Positions 20,305 to 47,787 are shown, counted from the first letter of the stretch. The stretch is 64,000 nucleotides of DNA from Escherichia coli (GCF_011045215.1 NZ_CP049201.1), one strand, 5' to 3'. Translations and numbers: made by a program. The notes: a model not told the origin generated them from the sequence alone.

Positions 20305-20577
20305 GAGTTCCCCGCGCCAGCGGGGATAAACCGTCGTCGAGAATCAGCACGAATGCCGCAACTGCGAGTTCCCCGCGCCAGCGGGGATAAACCGTGTGTA
20401 CGTCAGGCCCGTACCAGCATACCCCTGAGTTCCCCGCGCCAGCGGGGATAAACCGCCTACTCTCCTATTGCAGCAATTGCTGCGTCAGTGTTCCCCGCGC
20501 CAGCGGGGATAAACCGGGTACAAAAGAGGCCCCATTCTGGCAGGGCTCGAGTTCCCCGCGCCAGTGGGGATAAACCA
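20305..20577 (+). CRISPR. CRISPR array, type I-E repeats, 5 repeats / 4 spacers
   Basis: 29-bp repeat GAGTTCCCCGCGCCAGCGGGGATAAACCG at 20305, 20366, 20427, 20488 (GTG variant), 20549 (degenerate terminal). 32-bp spacers: tcgtcgagaatcagcacgaatgccgcaactgc; tgtgtacgtcaggcccgtaccagcatacccct; cctactctcctattgcagcaattgctgcgtca; ggtacaaaagaggccccattctggcagggctc. Confidence 0.97.
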
Positions 20578-21046: not shown

Positions 21047-21168
21047 CAGGGATAAACCGAACTAGTTAAAGTTTTTATTATGTTCCCTGCATCAGCGGGG
21101 ATAAACCGGACTTGTTATCATTTTTTAAGTTGTCGAACTTATGTTCCCCGCGCCAGCGGGGATAACCA
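21047..21168 (+). CRISPR. degenerate CRISPR remnant (one partial and two mutated repeats)
   Basis: cagggataaaccg (21047-21059); atgttccctgcatcagcggggataaaccg (21080-21108); atgttccccgcgccagcggggataacca (21141-21168); one 32-bp and one 20-bp spacer-like segment; abuts the ygcE 3' end. Confidence 0.8.
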
Positions 21169-21214
21169 TTCAGGTATGTTCAGGCCGGGCAGTTTCCCGC
21201 CCGGTCTTCCTCAC

Positions 21215-22693
21215 TTACGCATTCGACCAGCTCTGGATCGAATCCGCATTTCCCAATTCCCCATGCATCACTTCATACGATTTTTTCAGAATCACATCAG
21301 TATGTTTGGTTAGGTCTTTGAAAATGCCTTTATTCATCGCGTCGTAGCGTTTGGCATTGCTCTCAATCGGTATAAAGATATCTTTCACGCGAACCATTTT
21401 ATCGACAGCCGTTGCGTAATCCGGGTATAGCCCCAGACCTACCGCGGTATTAATCGCTGCCCCCAGACTTGCACAACCGTTAATGGCGTTACGGCGTGCC
21501 GGAAGGTTGAACACGTCGGCAAAAATTTGCATAAACAGATCGCTGTTCGAACCGCCGCCAGTAATGATCACATGCTTTGCAAAGTGATTCATTTCATTAC
21601 ACATATTGTCGTAATTGTTCTTCAGCGTCAGCGCCACGCTTTCCAGTATCGAACGATATATCCATGCGTAATCCATGCTGGAATCAAAGCCGATCATAAT
21701 CCCACGTTTGTAGGGTTCCCACGGGTTGGTCAGCCAGTCCAGCACCGTCATCAGACCATTACAGCCAGGCGGCACACAAGAAGCTTTTTTGTTGAGCAAA
21801 TCTTCCGGTGAAAGATCCTGTGCTTTGGCATCCTGAATTAACGACTCGCCTAACATGTCGCGCAGCCAGCTCACCGTCCACATGCCTTTGCGAATACCGT
21901 AACCTTCATACAGCAATGTTTGCGGAATAGAAGACATAATCGGCCAGTACGCCACCGGATCTTTCGGCAAGGCTTTGCCATTCATCATCAGCGCGATATA
22001 AGTACCGAGTGAAATCACCGCCGTTTCATCATCCAGTAATCCGGCCCCCAGAGCTTCTACCGGTTTATCACTGGTGGTACAAACAACCGGCAGCCCTGCC
22101 GGGAAATGTGTCGCCAGCGCGGCTTGAGGTGTGATCTGTCCAAGAACAGTGCCTGGCATTTGCACATCAAACAGCATATGACGGGGGATATTAAACTTCT
22201 CCATGACTGCGGCATCTTCACTCCATGCCCAGCTCTTATAATCCACCGGCCACTGACCAAAATAGTTGGCGATATTGTCTTTAAACTCGCCGGTTAAGCG
22301 ATGCGTCAGATAACCCGAAAAAGAGGTGACATATGCCACGTCAGGATTAGTGTGTTCGTAGGGACGCGTTACGCGTGCATCCTGCCAGCTAATCAATGGC
22401 GCAGCTGGCGTGCCATCGGCTTTCAATAACGCACGGCAGCAACGGATGGATCCCAGACCAATACCGACAATATCTTCTTTATTCCCGGCAAACTGACTCA
22501 TCAAATCGTGACCGGCAAAACATAATGATGCCCATAAATCGTCGTCAGGATGTTCTGCAGTATCGGCATCTGGCGTGTGCATCGGCTGCAATAAGCCTTT
22601 ACCTTCGCAAACCACATTACCTTCCAGATCGTACATCACCACTTTTGTGCTCTGACTTCCGCCATCAATCCCTATGATGTATTTTTTCGACAT
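21215..22693 (-). CDS. ygcE: FGGY-family carbohydrate kinase
   Basis: 492-aa ORF with MSKKYIIGIDGGSQSTKVVMYD N-terminus typical of FGGY kinases. Confidence 0.85.
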   Translation of the reverse strand: MSKKYIIGIDGGSQSTKVVMYDLEGNVVCEGKGLLQPMHTPDADTAEHPDDDLWASLCFAGHDLMSQFAGNKEDIVGIGLGSIRCCRALLKADGTPAAPLISWQDARVTRPYEHTNPDVAYVTSFSGYLTHRLTGEFKDNIANYFGQWPVDYKSWAWSEDAAVMEKFNIPRHMLFDVQMPGTVLGQITPQAALATHFPAGLPVVCTTSDKPVEALGAGLLDDETAVISLGTYIALMMNGKALPKDPVAYWPIMSSIPQTLLYEGYGIRKGMWTVSWLRDMLGESLIQDAKAQDLSPEDLLNKKASCVPPGCNGLMTVLDWLTNPWEPYKRGIMIGFDSSMDYAWIYRSILESVALTLKNNYDNMCNEMNHFAKHVIITGGGSNSDLFMQIFADVFNLPARRNAINGCASLGAAINTAVGLGLYPDYATAVDKMVRVKDIFIPIESNAKRYDAMNKGIFKDLTKHTDVILKKSYEVMHGELGNADSIQSWSNA

Positions 22694-36275: not shown

Positions 36276-37010
36276 ATGCCCAAACTCGATCTAAACGCCC
36301 TGAACGAACTGCCGAAGGTAGATCGCATTCTGGCGCTGGCAGAAACTAACGCCCAACTGGAAAAACTGGACGCTGAAGGCCGCGTAGCCTGGGCGCTGGA
36401 TAATCTGCCCGGTGAATATGTGCTTTCTTCCAGCTTCGGCATTCAGGCGGCGGTGAGCCTGCATCTGGTGAATCAGATTCGCCCGGATATTCCAGTGATC
36501 CTCACCGATACCGGTTACTTGTTCCCGGAAACCTACCGCTTTATTGACGAGTTAACGGACAAACTCAAGCTCAACCTGAAAGTGTACCGTGCTACCGAAA
36601 GCGCAGCCTGGCAGGAAGCACGCTACGGAAAACTGTGGGAGCAGGGCGTTGAAGGCATTGAAAAGTACAATGACATCAACAAAGTCGAACCGATGAACCG
36701 GGCGCTGAAAGAACTTAACGCGCAAACGTGGTTTGCTGGCCTGCGCCGTGAACAATCCGGCAGCCGCGCCAATTTACCGGTGCTGGCAATTCAGCGTGGC
36801 GTATTTAAAGTGCTGCCGATTATCGACTGGGATAACCGAACTATTTATCAGTACCTGCAAAAACATGGCCTGAAATATCACCCATTATGGGACGAAGGAT
36901 ATTTATCGGTGGGCGATACCCATACAACTCGTAAATGGGAACCCGGCATGGCGGAAGAAGAAACGCGTTTCTTTGGCTTAAAAAGGGAATGTGGGTTACA
37001 CGAAGGGTAA
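36276..37010 (+). CDS. cysH: phosphoadenosine phosphosulfate (PAPS) reductase
   Basis: ATG at 36276 ([14 protein letters not shown]...) gives 244 aa; the track ORF extends upstream through the REP; C-terminal ECGLH motif. Confidence 0.95.
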
Positions 37011-37274
37011 TTAATGCCGGATAAATTAAACGCCTCTGTCAGAAATGATGGGGGCGTTTTTATTTTGCGAGCAGCATTCCTGATTTTAAACGTGAACGCC
37101 GCTGGAAGAATTATCAGGTATAGAATGGCGTCGGGTGCTTGAGGCTGTCTGGCGTTAAGCATTCGCGAGGTTCCAGATGGACAAAAGCCCCAGGCGATAT
37201 TTCTATCAACCTGAGGCCAGCGTTCGAACCTAAGCAATTCGAATGTTAGTCTCTTCTTTGCAGGGAGGCAAGAC

Positions 37275-37427
37275 ATGCTGACAAAATATGCCCTTGTGGC
37301 AATCATCGTACTGTGTTGTACAGTACTGGGATTCACGCTGATGGTAGGCGACTCGTTGTGTGAGTTGAGTATCAGAGAACGTGGTATGGAGTTTAAGGCT
37401 GTTCTCGCTTACGAATCGAAGAAGTAG
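37275..37427 (+). CDS. Hok/Gef-family type I toxin (50 aa)
   Basis: Not in the ORF track. ATG at 37275 preceded by GGGAGG; [50 protein letters not shown] has one TM helix and the Hok signature (CE..IR...E..A.LAYES). Same intergenic position as the K-12 hokX/sokX locus, as far as I recall. Confidence 0.75.
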
Positions 37428-37619
37428 CCACCACGCGGGGGTAAAACCCCGCGTATTGAATTGTGATGGTTTGGTCTCCTGCACCCTTTTTTAAATTTAT
37501 ATTTTTTATGTGAATATATTGTCTCTATTTATTATTATGAATTTCAAATGAAAATCATAAATTTATTCACAATATAAATGTTTTATTGGCTGATATATAT
37601 CACAGATAATTTTTAAAAT

Positions 37620-40319
37620 ATGCGTAAATATCCTTTAAGTTTACTGAAGGATAAAAATATTGTGACTTTCTTTGATTTCTGGGGAAAAACCCGACGCGAC
37701 GAGAAAGAAGGGGGTGACGACTATCACCTTCTTTGCTGGCATTCGCTGGATGTGGCCGCGATGGGCTATTTAATGGTTAAAAGAAATTGCTTCGGGCTGG
37801 CTGATTATTTTCGTCAATTAGGGATTTCTGACAAGGAACAGGCGGCTCAATTTTTCGCCTGGTTGTTGTGCTGGCACGATATTGGAAAATTTGCCCGCTC
37901 ATTTCAGCAACTTTACCTGCACCCACAACTCAAGGTTCCGGAAGGCGCAAGAAAGAATTACGAAAAGATCTCTCATTCAACGCTGGGCTACTGGTTGTGG
38001 CATCATTATTTAAGTGAATGCGAAGAATTGCTTCCTGCCTCTTCACTCTCTACTCGCAAACTTAAACGTGTAATAGCGATGTGGATGCCCATGACTACCG
38101 GGCATCATGGTCGGCCCCCTGACCGTATTGATGAACTGGATAATTTTCTGCCTGAAGACAAAGTTGCCGCGCGAGATTTTCTCCTTGAAATCAAGGCACT
38201 GTGTCCGCTCATAGAGATTCCCACATTCTGGGATAATGACGAGGGAGTTGAACTTTTAAAACAACTTTCCTGGTATATCTCTGCAACAGTCGTACTTGCA
38301 GACTGGACGGGTTCGTCAACGCGATTTTTTCCACGCGTCGCACACCCAATGGATATTAAAGATTACTGGCAGAAAACTTTAGTTCAGGCTCAAAACGCCT
38401 TAACCGTCTTTCCTCCAAAAGCAGAAACCGCACCTTTCACCGGAATTAATACGCTGTTTCCTTTTATTGAGCACCCGACACCATTACAGCAAAAGGTGCT
38501 GGATCTGGATATCAGCCAGCCAGGGCCACAGTTATTTATTCTGGAAGACGTGACTGGCGCAGGTAAAACAGAAGCGGCGCTTATCCTGGCGCACAGGTTG
38601 ATGGCTGCGAGGAAAGCACAGGGTTTGTTTTTTGGCCTGCCAACAATGGCAACGGCCAATGCCATGTACGATCGGCTGGTCAAAACCTGGCTTGCTTTCT
38701 TTTCGCCAGAATCCCGCCCCAGCCTGGTGCTGGCACACAGCGCCCGTACATTAATGGAACGCTTTAATGAATCACTCTGGTCCGGTGATTTAGTCGGGTC
38801 AGAAGAACCGGATGAACAAGCGTTCAGTCAAGGATGTGCAGCCTGGTTTGCCGACAGTAACAAGAAGGCTTTACTGGCTGAAATTGGCGTCGGCACGCTG
38901 GATCAGGCGATGATGGCAGTGATGCCGTTTAAACATAATAATCTGCGGCTTCTGGGGTTGAGTAACAAAATCCTGCTGGCTGATGAGATCCACGCCTGTG
39001 ACGCTTACATGTCGTACATTCTTGAAGGGTTGATTGAGCGACAGGTGCGTGGCGGAAACAGCGTCATTTTGCTTTCTGCTACGTTATCTCAACAGCAGCG
39101 CGACAAACTTGTCGCCGCCTTTGCGCGTGGCACAGAGGGCCAGCAAGAAGCTCCGTTCCTGGAAAAGGATGATTACCCCTGGCTGACGCATGTCACGAAA
39201 TCCGATGTGCATTCGCACCGGGTAGCGACGCGCAAAGACGTTGAGCGTAGCGTGAGCGTGGGTTGGCTTCATAGCGAACAAGAATGTATTGCGCGTATCG
39301 AATCAGCGGTAAGTCAGGGGAAATGCATCGCCTGGATCCGGAATTCTGTCGATGACGCTATTAAGGTTTATCGTCAGTTACTTGCCCGCGGCGTCATTCC
39401 TGCTTCCAGCCTTTCACTTTTTCATAGCCGCTTTGCTTTTAGCGATCGCCAGCGAATTGAAACGGAAACGCTGGCACGCTTTGGTAAAAATTGTAGTTTA
39501 AAAAGATCATCTCAAGTCATTGTTTGTACACAAGTAATTGAGCAAAGTGTGGATATTGACCTGGACGAAATGATCTCCGACCTGGCCCCCATTGATTTGC
39601 TGATCCAGCGAGCGGGGCGATTACAACGGCATATTCGCGATATTAATGGTCAGTTAAAGCGTGATGGAAAAGACGAGCGTTCCCCTCCTGAATTGCTGAT
39701 TCTGGCCCCCGTCTGGGACGACTCTCCGGGTGACGAATGGTTTGGCAGTGCGATGCGTAACAGCGCATATGTCTACCCCGATCATGGGCGAATCTGGCTG
39801 ACGCAGCGAGTATTGCGTGAGCAAGGCGCTATTCAGATGCCACACGCAGCCCGGCTTCTTATTGAATCCGTCTACGGTGAGGACGTGGTAATGCCGGAAG
39901 GATTTGCCCGCAGCGAGCAGGAGCAAGTGGGCAAATATTACTGCGATCGCGCAATGGCTAAAAAGTTTATGCTGAACTTCAGGCCCGGCTATGCCGCCAA
40001 TATCAACGATTACCTCCCGGAAAAGCTGTCGACACGTCTGGCTGAAGAGTCTGTTTCCCTGTGGCTGGCTACCTGTATTGACGGTGTGGTGAAGCCTTAT
40101 GCCAGCGGTGCTCACGCATGGGAAATGAGCGTTGCCAGAGTGCGTCGAAGCTGGTGGAAAAAACATCGGGATGAATTTTCTTTACTGGAAGGGGAAGCGT
40201 TCAGGCAGTGGTGTGTTGAACAACGGCAAGATCCGGAGATGGCAAACGTGATTTTAGTCACTGATGACGAAAGTTGCGGGTATTCGGCCAGGGAGGGATT
40301 GATTGGCAAGGTTGATTGA
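37620..40319 (+). CDS. cas3: type I-E CRISPR-associated helicase/nuclease Cas3
   Basis: 899-aa ORF; HD domain (HSLDVAAMG...WHDIGKF), Walker A-like (TGAGKTEA), DEAH-like (LADEIHACD), C-terminal domain; first gene of the cas operon. Confidence 0.93.
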   Translation: MRKYPLSLLKDKNIVTFFDFWGKTRRDEKEGGDDYHLLCWHSLDVAAMGYLMVKRNCFGLADYFRQLGISDKEQAAQFFAWLLCWHDIGKFARSFQQLYLHPQLKVPEGARKNYEKISHSTLGYWLWHHYLSECEELLPASSLSTRKLKRVIAMWMPMTTGHHGRPPDRIDELDNFLPEDKVAARDFLLEIKALCPLIEIPTFWDNDEGVELLKQLSWYISATVVLADWTGSSTRFFPRVAHPMDIKDYWQKTLVQAQNALTVFPPKAETAPFTGINTLFPFIEHPTPLQQKVLDLDISQPGPQLFILEDVTGAGKTEAALILAHRLMAARKAQGLFFGLPTMATANAMYDRLVKTWLAFFSPESRPSLVLAHSARTLMERFNESLWSGDLVGSEEPDEQAFSQGCAAWFADSNKKALLAEIGVGTLDQAMMAVMPFKHNNLRLLGLSNKILLADEIHACDAYMSYILEGLIERQVRGGNSVILLSATLSQQQRDKLVAAFARGTEGQQEAPFLEKDDYPWLTHVTKSDVHSHRVATRKDVERSVSVGWLHSEQECIARIESAVSQGKCIAWIRNSVDDAIKVYRQLLARGVIPASSLSLFHSRFAFSDRQRIETETLARFGKNCSLKRSSQVIVCTQVIEQSVDIDLDEMISDLAPIDLLIQRAGRLQRHIRDINGQLKRDGKDERSPPELLILAPVWDDSPGDEWFGSAMRNSAYVYPDHGRIWLTQRVLREQGAIQMPHAARLLIESVYGEDVVMPEGFARSEQEQVGKYYCDRAMAKKFMLNFRPGYAANINDYLPEKLSTRLAEESVSLWLATCIDGVVKPYASGAHAWEMSVARVRRSWWKKHRDEFSLLEGEAFRQWCVEQRQDPEMANVILVTDDESCGYSAREGLIGKVD

Positions 40320-40408
40320 GATGCCTGCGACAGAGACTCTCTGAATAGTTGATACACCGAAAAGGATGGATAACCGACCTGGATGGTCTTTTTTACGAGA
40401 GGATGCGT

Positions 40409-41971
40409 ATGAACTTGTTTTCACTTCTGACAACCCCGTGGTTGCCCGTTCGTTTTAAAGACGGAACGACAGGCAAACTGGCGCCAGTCGATCTGGCTGA
40501 TGAAAATGTTGTCGATATCGCCGCGCCGCGAGCAGATTTACAAGGTGCGGCATGGCAGTTTTTGCTGGGGCTACTACAAACCAGCTTTGCGCCAAAAGAT
40601 CATCGTCGTTGGGATGATATCTGGGAAGACGGACTGGAAGCTGAAAAGCTAAGGGAAGCATTGCTGTCATTAGAACATGCTTTCCAGTTTGGCCCAGATT
40701 CCCCTTCATTTATGCAGGATTTTGAGGCGCTCACGGGAGATAAAGTTCAGGTCGCTTCGCTACTGCCTGATGTTCCCGGCGCTCAAACGACGAAGTTTAA
40801 TAAAGACCATTTTATCAAGCGTGGTGTAACGGAATATCTGTGCCCCCATTGTTTAGCATTGGCCTTGTTCTCTTTACAGTTGAATGCACCAGCGGGTGGC
40901 AAAGGCTATCGCACCGGTTTGCGCGGCGGTGGGCCGATGACCACTCTGATTGAATTACAGGAATATCAGGGCAATCAACAAACACCCTTATGGCGCAAAC
41001 TGTGGCTCAACGTGATGCCGCAGGATGAAGCCGACTTACCGCTACCCCAAAAATTTGACGATCTGGTTTTCCCCTGGCTTGGCCCGACGCGTACCAGCGA
41101 ACTGGCCGGTGCGGTGGTAACCGATGATCAGGTTAATAAACTCCAGGCGTACTGGGGAATGCCACGGCGTATTCGTATTGATTTTAATACCACCACAGTC
41201 GGCAACTGCGATATTTGCGGTGAGCAGAGCGACGCGCTTCTGAGCCTGATGACGACCAAAAATTACGGCGCTAACTATGCCATGTGGCAGCATCCCTTAA
41301 CGCCTTACCGTGTACCACTTAAAGAGGGCGGCGAGTTTTACTCAGTTAAACCACAACCGGGCGGTTTAATCTGGCGCGACTGGTTAGGCCTTATCGAAAC
41401 GGGGAAATCAGAAAACAATACGGAACTTCCCGCGCTGGTGGTGAAACTCTTTAATGCCAGCAGTCTGAAACAGGCAAAAGTGGGCCTGTGGGGATTTGGT
41501 TATGATTTTGACAACATGAAAGCGCGCTGTTGGTACGAGCACCATTTCCCGCTTCTGCTCAATAAAAAAGAAGGCCAGATACCGAAACTGCGGCTGGCTG
41601 CGCAAACGGCTTCACGGATTCTGAGTCTGTTACGGAGTGCATTGAAAGAAGCGTGGTTCTCCGATCCAAAAGGTGCACGGGGTGATTTCAGTTTTGTGGA
41701 TATCGACTTCTGGAACAAAACTCAGCATCGCTTCCTGAGGTTAGTGCGCCAAATTGAAGAAGGTCAGGATGCGGATGAATTACTCGGCAAATGGCAAAAG
41801 GAAATTTGGTTATTCGCACGTCAGGATTTTGACGAGCGTGTATTCACCAATCCTTATGAGCCCGTTGATTTGGAACGCGTCATGACCGCGCGCAAGAAAT
41901 ATTTTACAACATCGGCGGAGAAGCAAAGTGCTAAAGCCGCCAGGGAGAAAAAGCAGGAGGCTGCTGAATGA
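40409..41971 (+). CDS. casA: Cascade large subunit Cse1 (CasA)
   Basis: ATG at 40409 (MNLFSLLTTPWLPVRF...; alternative ATG at 40403; track TTG 40349); about 520 aa; position and size match Cse1; clearly divergent from the K-12 CasA sequence as I recall it. Confidence 0.88.
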   Translation: MNLFSLLTTPWLPVRFKDGTTGKLAPVDLADENVVDIAAPRADLQGAAWQFLLGLLQTSFAPKDHRRWDDIWEDGLEAEKLREALLSLEHAFQFGPDSPSFMQDFEALTGDKVQVASLLPDVPGAQTTKFNKDHFIKRGVTEYLCPHCLALALFSLQLNAPAGGKGYRTGLRGGGPMTTLIELQEYQGNQQTPLWRKLWLNVMPQDEADLPLPQKFDDLVFPWLGPTRTSELAGAVVTDDQVNKLQAYWGMPRRIRIDFNTTTVGNCDICGEQSDALLSLMTTKNYGANYAMWQHPLTPYRVPLKEGGEFYSVKPQPGGLIWRDWLGLIETGKSENNTELPALVVKLFNASSLKQAKVGLWGFGYDFDNMKARCWYEHHFPLLLNKKEGQIPKLRLAAQTASRILSLLRSALKEAWFSDPKGARGDFSFVDIDFWNKTQHRFLRLVRQIEEGQDADELLGKWQKEIWLFARQDFDERVFTNPYEPVDLERVMTARKKYFTTSAEKQSAKAAREKKQEAAE

Positions 41972-42504
41972 GTATTGTAAAAGAGGAGCACAAAGCCACG
42001 CTGCGCAAATGGCATGAGGAATTGCAGGAGAAACGCGGCGAACGTGCCAGTCTGCGGCGTAGTACGACGGTTAATGATGTTTGTCTGACGGATGGATTTC
42101 GCCTGTTTCTGAAGAACAGACAAATAAAGTGGCAGGATGAACCTGAATGGCGTATTACCGCACTGGCGCTGATAGCCGCACTTAGCGCTAATGTTAAAGC
42201 CATTGATGAACGGCTGCCTTTTGCTGCGCAGCTGGCGGCGGTAATGTCAAAGGGGCGTTTTACTCGCCTGTCGGCAGTAAAAACACCGGATGAATTACTG
42301 CGCCAGTTACGCCGCGCAGTCAGATTATTAAACGGTTCCGTTAATCTTGACTCTCTGGCAGAGGGTGTCTTCCGCTGGTGCCAGGAGAGCGACGATCTGC
42401 TCAATCATCACCGCCGTCATCAGCGGCCAACCGAATTTATCCGTATCCGCTGGGCGCTGGAATATTACCAGGCTGGCGACGCCGATAACGAACAAAATCA
42501 ATAA
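41968..42504 (+). CDS. casB: Cascade small subunit Cse2 (CasB)
   Basis: 178-aa helical, basic ORF overlapping the casA stop. Confidence 0.88.
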   Translation: MSIVKEEHKATLRKWHEELQEKRGERASLRRSTTVNDVCLTDGFRLFLKNRQIKWQDEPEWRITALALIAALSANVKAIDERLPFAAQLAAVMSKGRFTRLSAVKTPDELLRQLRRAVRLLNGSVNLDSLAEGVFRWCQESDDLLNHHRRHQRPTEFIRIRWALEYYQAGDADNEQNQ

Positions 42505-42515
42505 AGGACTATCTC

Positions 42516-43571
42516 ATGACGACATTTATTCAGCTTCATTTGTTAACCGCTTACCCTGCAGCCAACCTTAACCGTGATGACACCGGAGCGCCGAAAACCG
42601 TGGTCCTGGGTGGAGCAACGCGACTGCGCGTTTCCTCGCAAAGTCTGAAACGTGCGTGGCGCACTTCTGCACTTTTTGAACAGGCACTGGCGGGCCATAT
42701 TGGTATTCGCAGTGGGCGTATTGCGCGTGAGGCGGCAACGATCCTGATTGAGAAAGGCATCGAAGAGAAAAAAGCCATCGAATGGGCGGCAAAAATTGCG
42801 GATTATCTTGGGAAAGCTAAAAACGACAAAAAACCAAAAGATCCGCTCACTAACGCCGAAACTGAACAATTAGTCCATATCAGCCCGGCAGAATTTGACG
42901 CCGTAAAAGCGCTGGCCCATCAACTGGCCGAAGAAAAGCGCGCGCCAAAAGAGGAAGATCTCGCTTTGTTACGTAAAGATCGCATGGCGGTAGATATCGC
43001 TATGTTTGGTCGTATGCTGGCGAATAAACCCGAATTTAATGTTGAAGCCGCCTGCCAGGTCGCGCATGCATTTGGTGTCAGTGAAACGATTGTCGAAGAT
43101 GATTTTTTCACCGCCGTTGATGATTTGCGCCAGGCTTCTGAAGATGCCGGTGCCGGGCATCTTGGTGAAACCGGATTCGGTTCTGCGCTGTTCTACACCT
43201 ATATCTGCATCGATAAAGATCTGCTGGTCGAAAACCTCGGCGGTGACGAAGCGTTAGCTAATCAGACCTTGCGCGCCTTTACGGAAGCCGCACTTAAAGT
43301 CTCCCCAACCGGCAAACAGAACAGCTTTGCCAGCCGTGCCTACGCCTCCTGGGCGCTGGCAGAAAAAGGGACTGAACAACCACGCTCTCTGGCGGCGGCT
43401 TTCTATGAACCCATTAATGGCACCCGGCAGTTAGATGTGGCGGTGCAGCGTATTACAACGCTTCGCGAAAATATGAATACGGTCTATGAACAGAAGACCG
43501 AATGCGCAAGCTTTGACGTGATGAACAAACAGGGAAGCATGAAGGACGTGCTGGACTTTATCTGCGCGTAA
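42516..43571 (+). CDS. casC: Cascade backbone subunit Cas7 (CasC)
   Basis: 351-aa ORF MTTFIQLHLLTAYPAANLNRDDTGAPK... (conserved Cas7e N-terminus). Confidence 0.92.
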   Translation: MTTFIQLHLLTAYPAANLNRDDTGAPKTVVLGGATRLRVSSQSLKRAWRTSALFEQALAGHIGIRSGRIAREAATILIEKGIEEKKAIEWAAKIADYLGKAKNDKKPKDPLTNAETEQLVHISPAEFDAVKALAHQLAEEKRAPKEEDLALLRKDRMAVDIAMFGRMLANKPEFNVEAACQVAHAFGVSETIVEDDFFTAVDDLRQASEDAGAGHLGETGFGSALFYTYICIDKDLLVENLGGDEALANQTLRAFTEAALKVSPTGKQNSFASRAYASWALAEKGTEQPRSLAAAFYEPINGTRQLDVAVQRITTLRENMNTVYEQKTECASFDVMNKQGSMKDVLDFICA

Positions 43572-43581
43572 GGGGCGGCTA

Positions 43582-44328
43582 ATGAGCCAATATTTGATTT
43601 TTCAGCTTCATGGGCCAATGGCATCCTGGGGCGTCGATGCCCCCGGCGAAGTGCGTCATACCCATGAACTGCCTTCGCGCTCAGCATTGCTGGGGCTGCT
43701 GGCTGCCGGGGTAGGGATTCGGCGTGATGATACCGAACGATTAAACGCGTTTAACCGCCACTATTCACTGGTGGTTTGCGCCAGCCGTAACCCGCGCTGG
43801 GCACGGGATTATCACACGATCCAGATGCCAAAAGAGGTGCGTAAAGCGCGTTATTTCAGCCGTCGCGAAGAGTTGAGCGACCCTGATCTTCTGAGCGCGA
43901 TTATCTCCCGGCGCGACTACTACACCGACGCCTGGTGGATGGTGGCGGTGGCAACAACAGCCGATGCGCCTTACAGCCTCGAACAGTTGCAGGGCGGTTT
44001 ACGCCATCCAGTTTTTCCTCTTTATCTGGGGCGAAAAAGTCATCCGCTGGCATTACCACTTGCGCCGTTACTGCTCGAAGGCAACGCGTCTGATGTTTTA
44101 CGTAACGCATATCACCAGTATCAGGAGCATTTCCACGACCTGAAAATCGCACTCCCGAAACTTCAGGATGAATGCTGGTGGGAAGGGGAGCACGACGGCC
44201 TGGTCGCGAGCAAAATATTGCGCCGCCGGGATGTTCCTTTAAATCGTCAGCAATGGCTGTTTGGGGAACGCACCGTCAATCAGGGGCCGTGGCTCAGCAA
44301 GGAGGAACCATGTACCTCTCAAGAATAA
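43582..44328 (+). CDS. casD: Cascade subunit Cas5 (CasD)
   Basis: 248-aa ORF MSQYLIFQLHGPMASWG... (Cas5e N-terminus). Confidence 0.9.
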   Translation: MSQYLIFQLHGPMASWGVDAPGEVRHTHELPSRSALLGLLAAGVGIRRDDTERLNAFNRHYSLVVCASRNPRWARDYHTIQMPKEVRKARYFSRREELSDPDLLSAIISRRDYYTDAWWMVAVATTADAPYSLEQLQGGLRHPVFPLYLGRKSHPLALPLAPLLLEGNASDVLRNAYHQYQEHFHDLKIALPKLQDECWWEGEHDGLVASKILRRRDVPLNRQQWLFGERTVNQGPWLSKEEPCTSQE

Positions 44329-44956
44329 CCTTACATACCGGCCAGCTTTCGCCTGCGCAGTTGCTGCATCTGGTGGAGCGCGGGGAATATGTGATGCATC
44401 AGTGGCTGTGGGATCTCTTCCCTGGCGGCAAAGAAAGGCAATTTCTTTATCGTCGGGAAGAACTCCAGGGCGCGTTTCGCTTTTTTGTACTGTCGCAGGA
44501 ACGCCCGGCGGAAAGTGAAACGTTCACCATCGAATGCCGGTCATTTGTGCCCGAGCTGCGTACCGGACAACAACTTTGTTTCAACCTGCGGGCGAATCCA
44601 ACAATCTGTAAAGCGGGCAAGCGCCACGATCTGCTGATGGAGGCGAAACGGCAGGTGAGGGGGCAGGCGGAAGGAAGTGATGTCTGGTTGCATCAACAAC
44701 AGGCGGCGCTGGACTGGCTGGCAGCGCAGGGGGAGAGAAGCGGTTTTACACTGCTGGATACCTCGGTTGATGCCTACCGACAACAGCAACTGCGGCGGGA
44801 AAACTCCCGGCAACTGATCCAGTTCAGTAGCGTGGATTATACGGGGATGCTTACGGTCACCGATCCCGGGTTATTTCTGCAACGTCTCAGTCAGGGGTAT
44901 GGCAAAAGCCGCGCGTTCGGCTGTGGTCTGATGCTGATCAAACCCGGAGCAGAGGC

Positions 44957-44960
<4 letters not shown>
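44310..44960 (+). CDS. casE: crRNA endoribonuclease Cas6e (CasE)
   Basis: ATG at 44310 after AGGAGG (MYLSRITLHTGQL...), 216 aa; the track ORF begins upstream inside casD. Confidence 0.9.
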
Positions 44961-46170
<1,210 letters not shown>

Positions 46171-46266
46171 GTTATGTGTTCTTTAAAAATAAGGAAATGT
46201 TTGAATTTAGTTGGTAGATTGTTGATGTGGAATAAATTTGTTTAAAAACAGATATGTATGCTTAGT
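46171..46266 (+). promoter_or_regulatory. AT-rich CRISPR leader (cas2-proximal array)
   Basis: About 95 bp of AT-rich sequence between the cas2 stop and the first repeat. Confidence 0.6.
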
Positions 46267-46477
46267 GTGTTCCCCGCGCCAGCGGGGATAAACCGGTGCA
46301 TAAAAAATGATACCCCAGCGTTTCGTTGTGTTCCCCGCGCCAGCGGGGATAAACCGATTGAAATAGATCTCCCCGACATTAACGAACAGTGTTCCCCGCG
46401 CCAGCGGGGATAAACCGGGCGCACTGGATGCGATGATGGATATCACTTAGAATTCCCCGCCCCTGCGGTAGAACTCC
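46267..46477 (+). CRISPR. CRISPR array, type I-E repeats, 4 repeats / 3 spacers
   Basis: GTGTTCCCCGCGCCAGCGGGGATAAACCG at 46267, 46328, 46389, and a degenerate terminal repeat (gaattccccgcccctgcggtagaactcc) at 46450. Spacers: gtgcataaaaaatgataccccagcgtttcgtt; attgaaatagatctccccgacattaacgaaca; ggcgcactggatgcgatgatggatatcactta. Confidence 0.97.
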
Positions 46478-46498
46478 CAGCTCCCATTTTCAAACCCA

Positions 46499-47536
46499 TC
46501 AAGACGCCTTCGCCAGCTCCTTCACCAGTGGTAGCATTATCCGCATAACATCACGGCAGCGACGTTCTATTCTTCCAGGAAGTGCCTTATCAATATGCTG
46601 TTGATTATCAAGCCTTACATCATGCCAGCTATTTCCCGCAGGGAATGCGGCTGTTTTTGCGCGTTGCTGATAACCATCTTTATTCCCAAGATTCCAGTTA
46701 GTCGCTTCCACCGAAAGTACAGCAATGCCCGCTTTGTCGAATATTTCTGCGTCATTACAACACCCAGTGCCTTTCGGATAATTTTTATTCAAACCCGGAT
46801 TGGTCGTTGCGGCTATTCCGTGACTGCGCGCAATTGCCAGCGCCCTGTCGCGCGTTAATTTCCTTACTGCTTCAGGGGTTTTTACACCGCTGTTGAAATA
46901 CAATTTATCGCCAACAATTAAGTTATCGAGATTAATCACCAGCAGCGTATTTTTCTTTTCGGTGTCACTCATCCGCTTGAGTAAATTCTCAGCGCCTAAT
47001 TTCCCTTCCTCTTCGCCGCTGGTCGCCACAAATCGAATACCATACTCGGTAGGCGTATTTTTCAGGCGTTCTGCCAATTCCAGCATGACACCTAAACCTG
47101 CGGCGTTATCATCCATTCCTTGTAACGTCAGCCCGCCGAGATTGGCATCGGCGTCAGCATCGCTCAGCGGGGCGTAAGTATCCAGATGCGCCATAATGAT
47201 GATCTGCTGCGGCGCTTTGCCTTCATGAGCGGCAATCACCGTACTTCCCGTCACGTTATGCCAGCTCTTGCGATTATCGCGGGCGGTATAAATATACCGA
47301 CTATTAAATGTCCGAATATCACTGCGATAACCCATTTGCTGAAACTGTTGGCGAATATAATCGGCAGATAACATTTCTGCAGGAGTTCCGGTCATGCGTC
47401 CCGGAAAGAAAGTAGCAATATGTCGTGCCTGGGTATTAGCAAAATCGCCAGGTTTAGGTGACGAGGCGTGTACGGGGAGAATAAAGCATACGCCGAGCGC
47501 CAGGGCAGCGGTACGGTGGCGCAATGCGGAAAACAT
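46499..47536 (-). CDS. iap: alkaline phosphatase isozyme conversion aminopeptidase
   Basis: 345-aa ORF with signal peptide and M28-type peptidase body; classical neighbour of the E. coli CRISPR array. Confidence 0.9.
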   Translation of the reverse strand: MFSALRHRTAALALGVCFILPVHASSPKPGDFANTQARHIATFFPGRMTGTPAEMLSADYIRQQFQQMGYRSDIRTFNSRYIYTARDNRKSWHNVTGSTVIAAHEGKAPQQIIIMAHLDTYAPLSDADADANLGGLTLQGMDDNAAGLGVMLELAERLKNTPTEYGIRFVATSGEEEGKLGAENLLKRMSDTEKKNTLLVINLDNLIVGDKLYFNSGVKTPEAVRKLTRDRALAIARSHGIAATTNPGLNKNYPKGTGCCNDAEIFDKAGIAVLSVEATNWNLGNKDGYQQRAKTAAFPAGNSWHDVRLDNQQHIDKALPGRIERRCRDVMRIMLPLVKELAKAS

Positions 47537-47787
47537 AGTGAGTCCTTAAATACCATGCAAATTTTTTTACCGCCATAGTATGAAACTGCCGCTGCGCTAA
47601 AACAATTTCAAATCTTCCTAAACGCCCGAAATCCGGTGCCTTAAGCACTTTTTGATATTAGCTTTGCCAAATCGTTATTCCGTTAAGGAACTACTCATTC
47701 TAATTGGTAATTTCATTCGTTCTCTTACGCTCCCTATAGTCGAAACATCTGATGGCAAGAAAATAGCGGTATTGCAAAGGAACGGTT

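Follow-up and report, generated by a model that had tools for sequence, protein, structure and literature searches.

Two variants of type I-E CRISPR-Cas, cas-EK and cas-EO, have been described in Escherichia coli (Díez-Villaseñor 2013, PMC3737337), and the same work described the linkage of cas-EO with leader-A and CRISPR-A. The reported acquisition motif of cas-EO is CWT, which reads AWG on the opposite strand and covers CAT/ATG, compared with CTT in K-12, and the Cas1-Cas2 of the O157:H7 cas-EO set has been shown experimentally to integrate spacers (PMC3737337). A 2025 paper names the variant 'var. B-8552' (PMC12736100). Under laboratory conditions, the I-E systems of E. coli have generally been described as silent (PMC10011333).

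We analyzed a stretch of 64,000 nucleotides of the E. coli chromosome (GCF_011045215.1, NZ_CP049201.1), hereafter the window, which carries cas genes between cysH/hok on one side and iap on the other. We conclude, with a probability of about 0.93, that these genes form a complete type I-E locus on the chromosome, that they belong to the cas-EO (O157:H7-type, non-K-12) kind of E. coli, and that they sit in the usual place, with cysH-hok on the left and iap on the right. The intact operon is real but ordinary, as the O157-type I-E set is already known and well described. The features are as follows:

20305..20577, plus strand: second I-E array, at the ygcE-queE locus (array 2); five repeats (four GAGTT, one GTGTT), four spacers, own leader on the 5' side
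21080..21169, plus strand: degenerate remnant array; two decayed repeats, one spacer
37133..37427, plus strand: hok/sok type I toxin-antitoxin, intact; bounds the variable cassette on the left (Rfam RF01794, 111.7 bits)
37429..37619, plus strand: AT-rich stretch 5' of cas3 (hok-cas3 spacer), 27.2% GC
37620..40319, plus strand: cas3 (899 aa), fused HD nuclease and SF2 helicase (TIGR01587 227 bits, TIGR01596 88 bits, both above cutoff)
40320..40408, plus strand: cas3-casA intergenic spacer, 89 nt, 47.2% GC
40409..41971, plus strand: casA/cse1/cas8e (520 aa), Cascade large subunit (TIGR02547 613 bits)
41968..42504, plus strand: casB/cse2/cas11e (178 aa), ATGA overlap with casA (TIGR02548 99 bits)
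42516..43571, plus strand: cas7e/casC (351 aa; TIGR01869 448 bits)
43582..44328, plus strand: cas5e/casD (248 aa; TIGR01868 158 bits)
44310..44960, plus strand: cas6e/casE (216 aa), pre-crRNA endonuclease (TIGR01907 292 bits)
44957..45880, plus strand: cas1e (307 aa, GTG start), integrase (TIGR03638 379 bits)
45877..46170, plus strand: cas2e (97 aa; TIGR01873 134 bits)
46171..46266, plus strand: leader of the cas-adjacent array, 'leader-A' type, 96 nt, 25% GC
46267..46478, plus strand: CRISPR array (array 1); three 32-nt spacers, three perfect repeats of 29 nt (GTGTTCCCCGCGCCAGCGGGGATAAACCG) and a terminal repeat that is degenerate

The subtype assignment is carried by gene content and order. 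From 37620 to 46478 the genes run cas3-casA-casB-cas7-cas5-cas6e-cas1-cas2, followed by the leader and the four-repeat, three-spacer array, and curated cutoffs of the NCBIfam type I-E models were exceeded by all eight Cas proteins. These include the signature proteins Cse1/Cas8e and Cse2/Cas11e (cutoffs 70 and 28.5 bits, respectively) as well as the TIGR01869, TIGR01868 and TIGR01907 members, which stand in canonical order between cas3 and cas2. A single Cas3 fuses the HD nuclease to the SF2 helicase, with its catalytic motifs intact (HDIGK at residue 86, Walker A GAGKT at 313, DEIH at 455, SAT at 486). Cas6e has a histidine aligned to K-12 H20, and Cas1 conserves E141, H208 and D221. The adaptation pair Cas1e/Cas2e comes without cas4, and the eight genes fill 37620-46170, leaving no space for another gene. 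In the adjacent array the repeats are palindromic, of 'type 2' and 29 nt long, the spacers measure 32 nt, and the leader is AT-rich.

An initial sequence-only reading had described eight intact, tightly coupled genes with a leader and array downstream of cas2, and had named frameshifts or stops as what would overturn it. The co-oriented reading frames contain no internal stop or frameshift, and the description is confirmed. Junctions measure -4, +11, +10, -19, -4 and -4 nt; the one larger gap, of 89 nt, separates cas3 from casA. The true starts of casA (ATG 40409) and cas6e (ATG 44310, preceded by an AGGAGG ribosome-binding site) lie inside the longest open reading frames and agree with the RefSeq annotation of O55:H7, as do the protein lengths. 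The same reading had pointed to two divergent cas I-E sets at this locus in E. coli, in agreement with the literature (PMC3737337, PMC2886076, PMC12736100).

Among known systems, the locus most resembles cas-EO of O157:H7 and O55:H7, with which it shares the site between cysH-hok and iap, eight genes of equal lengths, leader-A, the GTGTT repeat and the trailer spacer. Amino acid identity is 94.8-100% to O55:H7 (100% for Cas7), against 24-86% to K-12, and the GTGTT repeats occur together with a leader identical to that of O55:H7, which fits the linkage published for cas-EO (PMC3737337). The gene lengths (2700/1563/537/1056/747/651/924/294) and K-12 identities in Table 1 of PMC12736100 equal those of the window. 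The K-12-specific models PRK09694 and PRK09693 scored below their own cutoffs, which places the locus outside cas-EK. The best match to the whole operon, at 96.5% nucleotide identity over its full length, is that of E. coli O55:H7 DEC5B. Among 5,426 complete E. coli genomes, 2,419 (~45%) contain at least 80% of the operon, always on the chromosome, and K-12-type Cascade genes are found in 1,121 (~21%).

The locus nevertheless differs from known cas-EO loci in its mosaic of alleles. Its exact combination occurs in no single complete E. coli genome, although each segment is found somewhere at 98.7-100%: cas3 is 99.4% identical in nucleotides to E. coli OZ197100, and the best E. coli casA allele reaches 98.7%. 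The cas3 allele is a minority one (at least 95% identical in only 80 of 2,785 genomes), casA segment 40600-41050 is only 88% identical to three references, and the leader-proximal spacers are unique. Outside Escherichia, the nearest relatives of every gene are in Klebsiella, Citrobacter and Intestinirhabdus (such as K. spallanzanii and C. youngae), whose I-E systems belong to other genera, show 84-88% identity for Cas7, 67-74% for Cas3 and 92-95% for Cas1, and share a clade with the window in the trees of all three proteins (100% bootstrap).

Ten repeat copies were found in the window, against zero expected by chance. In array 1, repeats begin at 46267, 46328 and 46389, and the last one, at 46450-46478, is degenerate. 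All three intact repeats are of the GTGTT type, and the CRISPR-A repeat …GGGGAACAC corresponds to GTGTTCCCC… on the leader strand. The repeat had been taken for the canonical E. coli I-E repeat, which is imprecise for array 1: its GTGTTCCCC… is one base apart from the K-12 consensus GAGTTCCCC…. The leader is partly conserved relative to that of K-12 but differs from it in type. The spacer counts of three and four given earlier for two short arrays agree with ours; the third, degenerate array at 21080-21169 had gone unmentioned, and its spacer is unchanged in other E. coli chromosomes. The trailer spacer of array 1 (46418-46449) is common to O55:H7, OZ197100 and K-12 with at most one mismatch. 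Because the terminal repeat is degenerate, processing of this last spacer is improbable.

Protospacers were found for only two spacers, both in the distal array. Spacer 4 of array 2 (20517-20548) matches traD of ~1,500 IncF plasmids at 29 of 32 positions; the PAM is ATG (ATG + GGTACAAAAGAGGACCCGTTCTGGCAGGGTTC) and the seed is perfect. Positions 18 and 30 account for two of the three mismatches, and two of the three leave the traD product unchanged. Spacer 1 of array 2 (20334-20365) matches a prophage tail-region gene at 31 of 32 positions, with a PAM of AAA rather than AWG. The traD and prophage tail genes are plausible targets of these spacers. No phage target was found for any of the eight spacers in 50,697 phage records searched in sensitive mode, and no self-target within the 64-kb window at up to five substitutions. 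Four spacers had no exact match of at least 28 nt in the 5,426 complete E. coli genomes, namely the two leader-proximal spacers of array 1 (46296-46327 and 46357-46388) and two of array 2 (20334-20365, seen only as the prophage protospacer, and 20395-20426), suggesting lineage-specific acquisition.

The sequence shows the gene content, intact genes and catalytic motifs, a matching repeat and leader type and two plausible mobile-element targets. Going by established type I-E biology, any interference and adaptation would proceed as follows. The leader would drive transcription of the array, and Cas6e would cut the pre-crRNA in the repeat hairpins. A Cascade of CasA1-CasB2-Cas7(6)-Cas5-Cas6e carrying a 61-nt crRNA would locate protospacers with a 5'-AWG PAM and recruit the HD-helicase Cas3, which would degrade the target, while Cas1-Cas2 would add further spacers of 32/33 nt next to the repeat nearest the leader.

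The stretch at 37429-37619, whose last 130 nt before cas3 (37490-37619) are only 14.6% GC, is likely to hold the cas3 promoter region and is a possible H-NS target, and cas expression is probably low and H-NS-repressed from it. AT-rich regions consistent with H-NS silencing had been proposed upstream of both cas3 and casA. A cas operon silenced by H-NS as in K-12 would have AT-rich, curved promoter DNA before cas3, before casA and in the leader. In the window, AT-rich DNA precedes cas3 (14.6-27% GC) and forms the leader (25% GC), whereas the 89 nt before casA are 47% GC; sequence support for H-NS is thus limited to the cas3 upstream region and the leader. In K-12, by contrast, the cas3-casA spacer is 414 nt long, 29.5% GC, and carries Pcas. 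Since the spacer in the window is just 89 nt, cas3 may possibly be co-transcribed with casA. A consensus promoter scan gave only weak sigma-70-like matches 5' of cas3, no promoter-like site in the cas3-casA spacer (40320-40408) and no consensus match in the leader of the cas-adjacent array; as the promoter and terminator scans were weak or empty in these three places, we claim no promoter. The 450-nt cas3-casA spacer of CP083585 was considered as a homologue of K-12 Pcas and rejected, there being no BLAST match. That long spacer holds a solitary inverted CRISPR repeat, absent from the window. At the left edge, the Rfam sok match spans 37133-37290 and the hok frame 37275-37427 (50 aa), with a translation identical to the O55:H7 Hok/Gef protein; an Rfam scan of 36900-47700 found no RNA family besides sok.

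The strongest competing account is that the operon is intact yet H-NS-repressed and takes no part in natural acquisition or interference, either serving a non-immune role or not having decayed yet; we give it somewhat less than an even chance. The small number of spacers (3 + 4, plus 1), the ancient trailer spacers common to both cas variants, the AT-rich cas3 upstream region and leader, and the empty search of phage records all favor such a silent state, as do the slow spacer turnover (PMC2886076) and H-NS silencing (PMC10011333) reported for E. coli. On the other hand, eight intact genes with catalytic motifs imply ongoing purifying selection, the four spacers unmatched in E. coli genomes suggest acquisition within the lineage, a gene of conjugative plasmids and a prophage are each matched by a spacer, and spacer integration has been demonstrated for the O157:H7 proteins (PMC3737337).

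A second account addresses the relation to K-12. The window shares with K-12 cas-EK the subtype, gene order, site, catalytic residues, trailer spacer and degenerate last repeat. Amino acid identity is 31.4% for Cas3, 24.9% for CasA, ~24% for CasB, 32.6% for Cas7, 35.0% for Cas5 and 31.2% for Cas6e, compared with 83.9% for Cas1, 86.2% for Cas2 and 99-100% for the flanking genes. The sequence-only reading had put Cas3 and Cse1 as very unlike their K-12 counterparts and Cas1 at about 85% identity, and both estimates are borne out; the uniform K-12 identity across the cas genes that would have spoken against it is absent (24-35% versus 84-86%). Its label of a K-12-like cas1 is accurate for the protein but fails for the DNA, where cas1 and cas2 are only 70.3% and 73.8% identical and synonymous sites have reached saturation (pS, the fraction of these sites that differ, is 0.83 and 0.73, against 0.06-0.12 in cysI, cysH, iap, cysD and cysN). 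Likewise, the divergence boundary it sought gene by gene lies at cas6e/cas1 in the proteins, whereas in the DNA the whole cassette is divergent: homology to K-12 stops at 37277, with no similarity from cas3 to cas6e, and is back only in the array. The divergent unit is the whole cassette, from the ATG (37277) of hok, which is intact in the window whereas K-12 retains only sokX, to the array.

A recent recombination at cas6e/cas1 that joined a K-12-type cas1-cas2-leader to a foreign cas3-Cascade module would explain why protein identity jumps from 31% in Cas6e to 84% in Cas1 exactly at that junction, and why DNA similarity to K-12 begins at the cas1 start codon. This reading is already largely refuted, and we regard it as very improbable. 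Recent exchange with K-12 was rejected because the cas1 and cas2 synonymous sites are saturated, with 70-74% DNA identity against 97-98% in the truly shared flanks. The Cas1 of the window is as close to those of Pectobacterium, Brenneria and Dickeya (84-85%) as to that of K-12, and neighbor-joining (NJ) trees of Cas1, Cas7 and Cas3 all place the window in one clade with E. albertii, Escherichia sp., Klebsiella and Citrobacter (100% bootstrap), so the operon is internally congruent. Any incongruence would lie rather with the K-12 operon, which has 95% identity in Cas1 but 30% in Cas7 to one and the same locus. We instead attribute the contrast between Cas1/Cas2 and Cas3/Cascade to the whole cassette being an anciently diverged alternative in which purifying selection acts far more strongly on the adaptation proteins; Cas1e/Cas2e identity is 75-95% in 80 loci from many genera, and this range applies to Cas1e across Gammaproteobacteria, whatever the effector type.

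Least probable of all is that the cassette arrived recently as cargo of a plasmid, ICE or phage and is no resident allele of the chromosome, since, despite the plasmid-typical hok/sok addiction module at the left flank, the incongruence of cas and flank alleles (best identity 96.5% for the operon, 99.3% for the flank) and the repeated whole-cas-locus replacement proposed previously (PMC2886076), each of the 7,347 places matched in E. coli genomes lies on the chromosome and none on a plasmid, O55:H7, OZ197100 and CP083585 have the identical site and gene order, the borders lack an integrase, transposase or tRNA as far as the ORF list shows, and the GC content of 49-56% is near that of the E. 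coli backbone.

We tentatively propose, as a possibility we hold to be doubtful, that the cas-EK/cas-EO split represents one case of an old, multi-genus dimorphism affecting the effector module of I-E systems (cas3 to cas6e), in which two clades ~30% identical were re-assorted several times at the cas6e/cas1 junction onto a slowly evolving Cas1-Cas2, leader and repeat backbone usable by both. In NJ trees with bootstrap over 42 loci, Cas7 and Cas3 separate K-type from O-type clades with 100% support, whereas in the Cas1 tree the K-type loci are monophyletic in 0 of 300 bootstraps and pair with O-type loci, from the same genus in three of four pairs. Identities for Cas1 and Cas7 are 94% versus 31% in Marinomonas, 91% versus 31% in Methylophaga and 92% versus 29% in Citrobacter, and the fourth pair joins K-12 to an unclassified Enterobacteriaceae MAG (UBA5654; 95% versus 30%). 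Because cas1-cas2 DNA identity in the same-genus pairs is only 71-77%, any re-assortment would be ancient rather than recent. Escape from anti-CRISPRs that target Cascade or Cas3 is a speculative driver. General module shuffling has already been published (PMC6452270), and the specific recurrent I-E pattern is the only part that might be undescribed; it bears on K-12-type operons more than on the congruent operon of the window.

As a discovery, the locus matters little. The cas-EO set is the commoner of the two documented E. coli I-E sets (~45% against ~21% for the K-12 type), while mechanistic knowledge has been gained almost entirely with the K-12 set; the Cas3 and Cascade proteins of that set share only 24-35% identity with the versions of most E. 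coli strains. Given this low identity and the different cas3-casA layout, K-12 regulation, and possibly its PAM rules, should not be transferred uncritically. With the spacer matching traD, I-E interference against IncF plasmids could be tested in a simple case provided by nature.

The window is E. coli chromosome, in which the cysJIH and iap-cysDNC flanks encode proteins with 99-100% identity to those of K-12 and show up to 99.3% DNA identity to complete E. coli genomes. The interval from cysH to iap contains, all on the + strand, an intact hok/sok type I toxin-antitoxin locus (37133-37427) directly 5' of cas3, then an AT-rich spacer, eight cas genes, a leader and a CRISPR array. In total, 10 copies of the I-E repeat were found in the window versus 0 expected by chance, those outside array 1 making up array 2 and a decayed remnant.

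CRISPR-Cas features, with amino acid identity of each Cas protein to K-12 in brackets
37133-37290, + strand, sok, Rfam match
37275-37427, + strand, hok ORF, product identical to the O55:H7 Hok/Gef protein
191 nt upstream of cas3, + strand, spacer, GC 27% overall and 14.6% in the last 130 nt
37620-40319, + strand, cas3 (31.4%)
40409-41971, + strand, casA (24.9%)
41968-42504, + strand, casB (~24%)
42516-43571, + strand, cas7 (32.6%)
43582-44328, + strand, cas5 (35.0%)
44310-44960, + strand, cas6e (31.2%)
44957-45880, + strand, cas1 (83.9%)
45877-46170, + strand, cas2 (86.2%)
96 nt directly 3' of cas2, + strand, leader of array 1
46267-46478, + strand, array 1, three perfect repeats and one degenerate
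20305-20577, array 2, 5 repeats and 4 spacers
21080-21169, decayed remnant, two degenerate repeats (ATGTTCCCTGCATCAGCGGGGATAAACCG and ATGTTCCCCGCGCCAGCGGGGATAACCAT) and one 32-nt spacer

All eight Cas proteins exceeded the curated cutoffs of the type I-E NCBIfam models, while Cas3 and CasA scored under the cutoffs of the K-12-specific models PRK09694 and PRK09693, respectively. No internal stops were found in the eight cas genes, and the junctions from casA to cas2 are short (-4, +11, +10, -19, -4 and -4 nt, with a cas3-casA gap of 89 nt), bearing out the sequence-only reading of eight intact, tightly coupled genes with a leader and array downstream of cas2. Cas3 carries the HD (HDIGK at 86), Walker A (GAGKT at 313), DEIH (455) and SAT (486) motifs, Cas1 retains the catalytic residues E141, H208 and D221, and a His of Cas6e aligns with K-12 H20. 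The starts of the longest ORFs of casA (TTG 40349) and cas6e (ATG 44172) were rejected, as the RefSeq-annotated 520 and 216 aa fit ATG 40409 and ATG 44310, each with a good ribosome-binding site.

The per-gene alignment showed that the identities to K-12 given in the sequence-only reading, low for Cas3 and Cse1 and about 85% for Cas1, were correct (31.4, 24.9 and 83.9%). The divergence boundary implied by its K-12-like cas1 held for the jump in protein identity; at the DNA level, however, the divergent unit is the entire hok-to-array cassette, since cas1 and cas2 share only 70.3% and 73.8% DNA identity with K-12, their synonymous sites are saturated (proportion differing, pS, 0.83 and 0.73, versus 0.06-0.12 in cysI, cysH, iap, cysD and cysN), and K-12 DNA homology stops at 37277, the hok start codon, and returns only within array 1. 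The divergence of cas1 and cas2, together with their saturated synonymous sites, rules out a recent recombination junction between cas6e and cas1. Because homology ends at the hok ATG and K-12 has kept the sokX remnant alone, whereas hok/sok is intact in the window, the left junction of the cassette replacement lies inside the hok/sok locus. The array 1 trailer spacer (46418-46449) matches K-12 at 31/32 positions, is identical in O55:H7 and OZ197100, and is common to strains of either cas variant with at most one mismatch; the right junction must therefore be within array 1. A divergent unit of this extent is in line with Touchon and Rocha, who proposed replacement of the complete cas locus through recombination between conserved flanking sequences, the CRISPR itself among them (PMC2886076).

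[quoted passage not shown] The array 1 repeats (GTGTTCCCC...) are of the A type, which corrects their earlier designation as the canonical E. coli I-E repeat, and the leaders of array 1 and O55:H7 are identical. The gene lengths are exactly those of 'var. B-8552' in a 2025 survey (2700, 1563, 537, 1056, 747, 651, 924 and 294 bp), and the identities to K-12 are essentially equal to those given there from cas3 to cas2 (29, 23, none, 31, 32, 29, 84 and 86%; PMC12736100). The feature is thus already known as the cas-EO variant, and its assignment to one of two divergent E. coli sets is supported by PMC3737337, leader-A and the A-type repeat. Of 5,426 complete E. coli genomes, 2,419 contained at least 80% of the window operon, chromosomal every time, and 1,121 contained K-12-type Cascade genes, making the window-type set the commoner of the two.

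This combination of alleles occurs in none of the complete E. coli genomes; O55:H7 DEC5B comes closest over the full operon, at 96.5% DNA identity. The cas3 allele is 99.4% identical to that of OZ197100, one environmental isolate, and is rare (80/2,785 genomes reach 95% identity); casA is 98.7% identical to that of ET350, with a segment (40600-41050) at 88% to three references; and casB through cas2 are 99-100% identical to O55:H7. The mixture is ordinary homologous-recombination mosaicism inside the cas-EO variant. K-12-type Cascade genes (all at least 95%) are much more homogeneous between genomes.

The AT-rich upstream regions reported earlier were confirmed for cas3 (27%/14.6% GC), where H-NS silencing is plausible, but not for casA: the cas3-casA spacer comprises 89 nt at 47% GC, in which no promoter-like site was found, whereas the K-12 counterpart, 414 nt long with a GC content of 29.5%, contains Pcas (PMC10011333). 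The cas3 and Cascade genes may share a common promoter upstream of cas3. The array 1 leader is AT-rich. In some relatives, such as E. coli CP083585 (L004 11701-12150) and Klebsiella spallanzanii (L010, ~2167-2216), the cas3-casA spacer is 450 nt long, and its first elements, right behind the stop codon of cas3, are a hairpin and a single CRISPR repeat in reverse orientation, CTTATCCCCGCTGACGCGGGGAACA; the window lacks this.

The spacer search proposed in the sequence-only reading matched a plasmid traD and a prophage gene, with no match in 50,697 phage records or elsewhere in the 64-kb window. The array 2 trailer spacer (20517-20548), also present in about 85 other complete E. coli genomes (e.g. 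O145:H28, O55:H7), matches traD of ~1,500 conjugative IncF-type plasmids, including F and R100-like, over its full length at 29/32 positions. The protospacer has a 5'-ATG PAM directly upstream and a perfect seed, the mismatches fall at positions 14, 18 and 30 (every sixth position is without base pairing in Cascade), and 2/3 differences are synonymous in traD, a pattern consistent with a genuine protospacer on an F-like plasmid that has diverged. The leader-proximal spacer of array 2 (20334-20365) matches a prophage of E. coli STEC379 at 31/32 positions, with the mismatch at position 30 (NZ_CP091024.1 2697102-2697133; a 483-aa hypothetical gene in a tail/baseplate module), and is flanked there by AAA where AWG would be expected. 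The two leader-proximal spacers of array 1 (46296-46327 and 46357-46388) and spacer 20395-20426 had no exact match of at least 28 nt in 5,426 genomes, consistent with lineage-specific acquisition. Little of the hairpin is left in the degenerate terminal repeat of array 1 (46450-46478), so the last, ancestral spacer is probably not matured. The decayed remnant has an extra repeat fragment (21049-21059), adjoins a 492-aa minus-strand ORF (21215-22693) and shares its conserved spacer with other E. coli chromosomes.

With window Cas1, 80 loci from other species were fetched (L006-L085), against which the 16 window and K-12 proteins were scored. Cas1e/Cas2e identity was 75-95% throughout the Gammaproteobacteria sampled, with Pectobacterium, Marinomonas, Gilliamella, Methylophaga and Shewanella among the genera covered, and even in Parasutterella; window Cas1 is no closer to K-12 (84%) than to Brenneria or Pectobacterium (84-85%), so its resemblance to K-12 Cas1 reflects very slow evolution of I-E adaptation proteins and no special relation. 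Two short contigs, L006 (JAEWTL010000035.1, 'Bacillota MAG') and L085 (JAIJJM010000114.1, 'Collinsella MAG'), carry cas genes with 94-100% identity to those of the window, for which contaminating E. coli DNA in the MAG bins is the most likely source. The cas7-cas2 proteins of Pseudocitrobacter vendiensis (L009, NZ_CALSBS010000035.1) are 95-98% identical to the window's, far closer than expected between genera, which may indicate recent transfer or mis-assignment.

Across the 80 loci, Cas3 and Cascade form two clades with ~30% identity between them. Neighbour-joining places window Cas1, Cas7 and Cas3 alike in one clade (bootstrap 100%) with E. albertii, an Escherichia sp., Klebsiella spallanzanii, K. 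indica, K. grimontii, Citrobacter youngae, C. sedlakii and Intestinirhabdus, so the window operon is internally congruent. The Cas7 and Cas3 trees (42 loci) separate a K-12-type clade from a superclade of window-like (O-type) effectors with bootstrap 100%, whereas K-type loci grouped in 0/300 bootstraps of the Cas1 tree and instead pair with O-type loci, of the same genus in 3/4 pairs: Marinomonas (Cas1 94%, Cas7 31%, Cas1 bootstrap 100), Methylophaga (91%, 31%, 82), Citrobacter (92%, 29%, 89), and K-12 with an Enterobacteriaceae MAG (95%, 30%, 79). By these trees, the incongruent operon appears to be that of K-12, not the window's. Since cas1-cas2 DNA identity inside such pairs is only 71-77%, the re-assortment events would be old. 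Module shuffling in general, including effector exchange as possible anti-CRISPR evasion, has been published (PMC6452270). Because the Cas1 tree is incongruent with those of Cas7 and Cas3, the I-E adaptation and effector modules appear to have partly separate histories, a tentative reading that concerns I-E loci and not the window itself.
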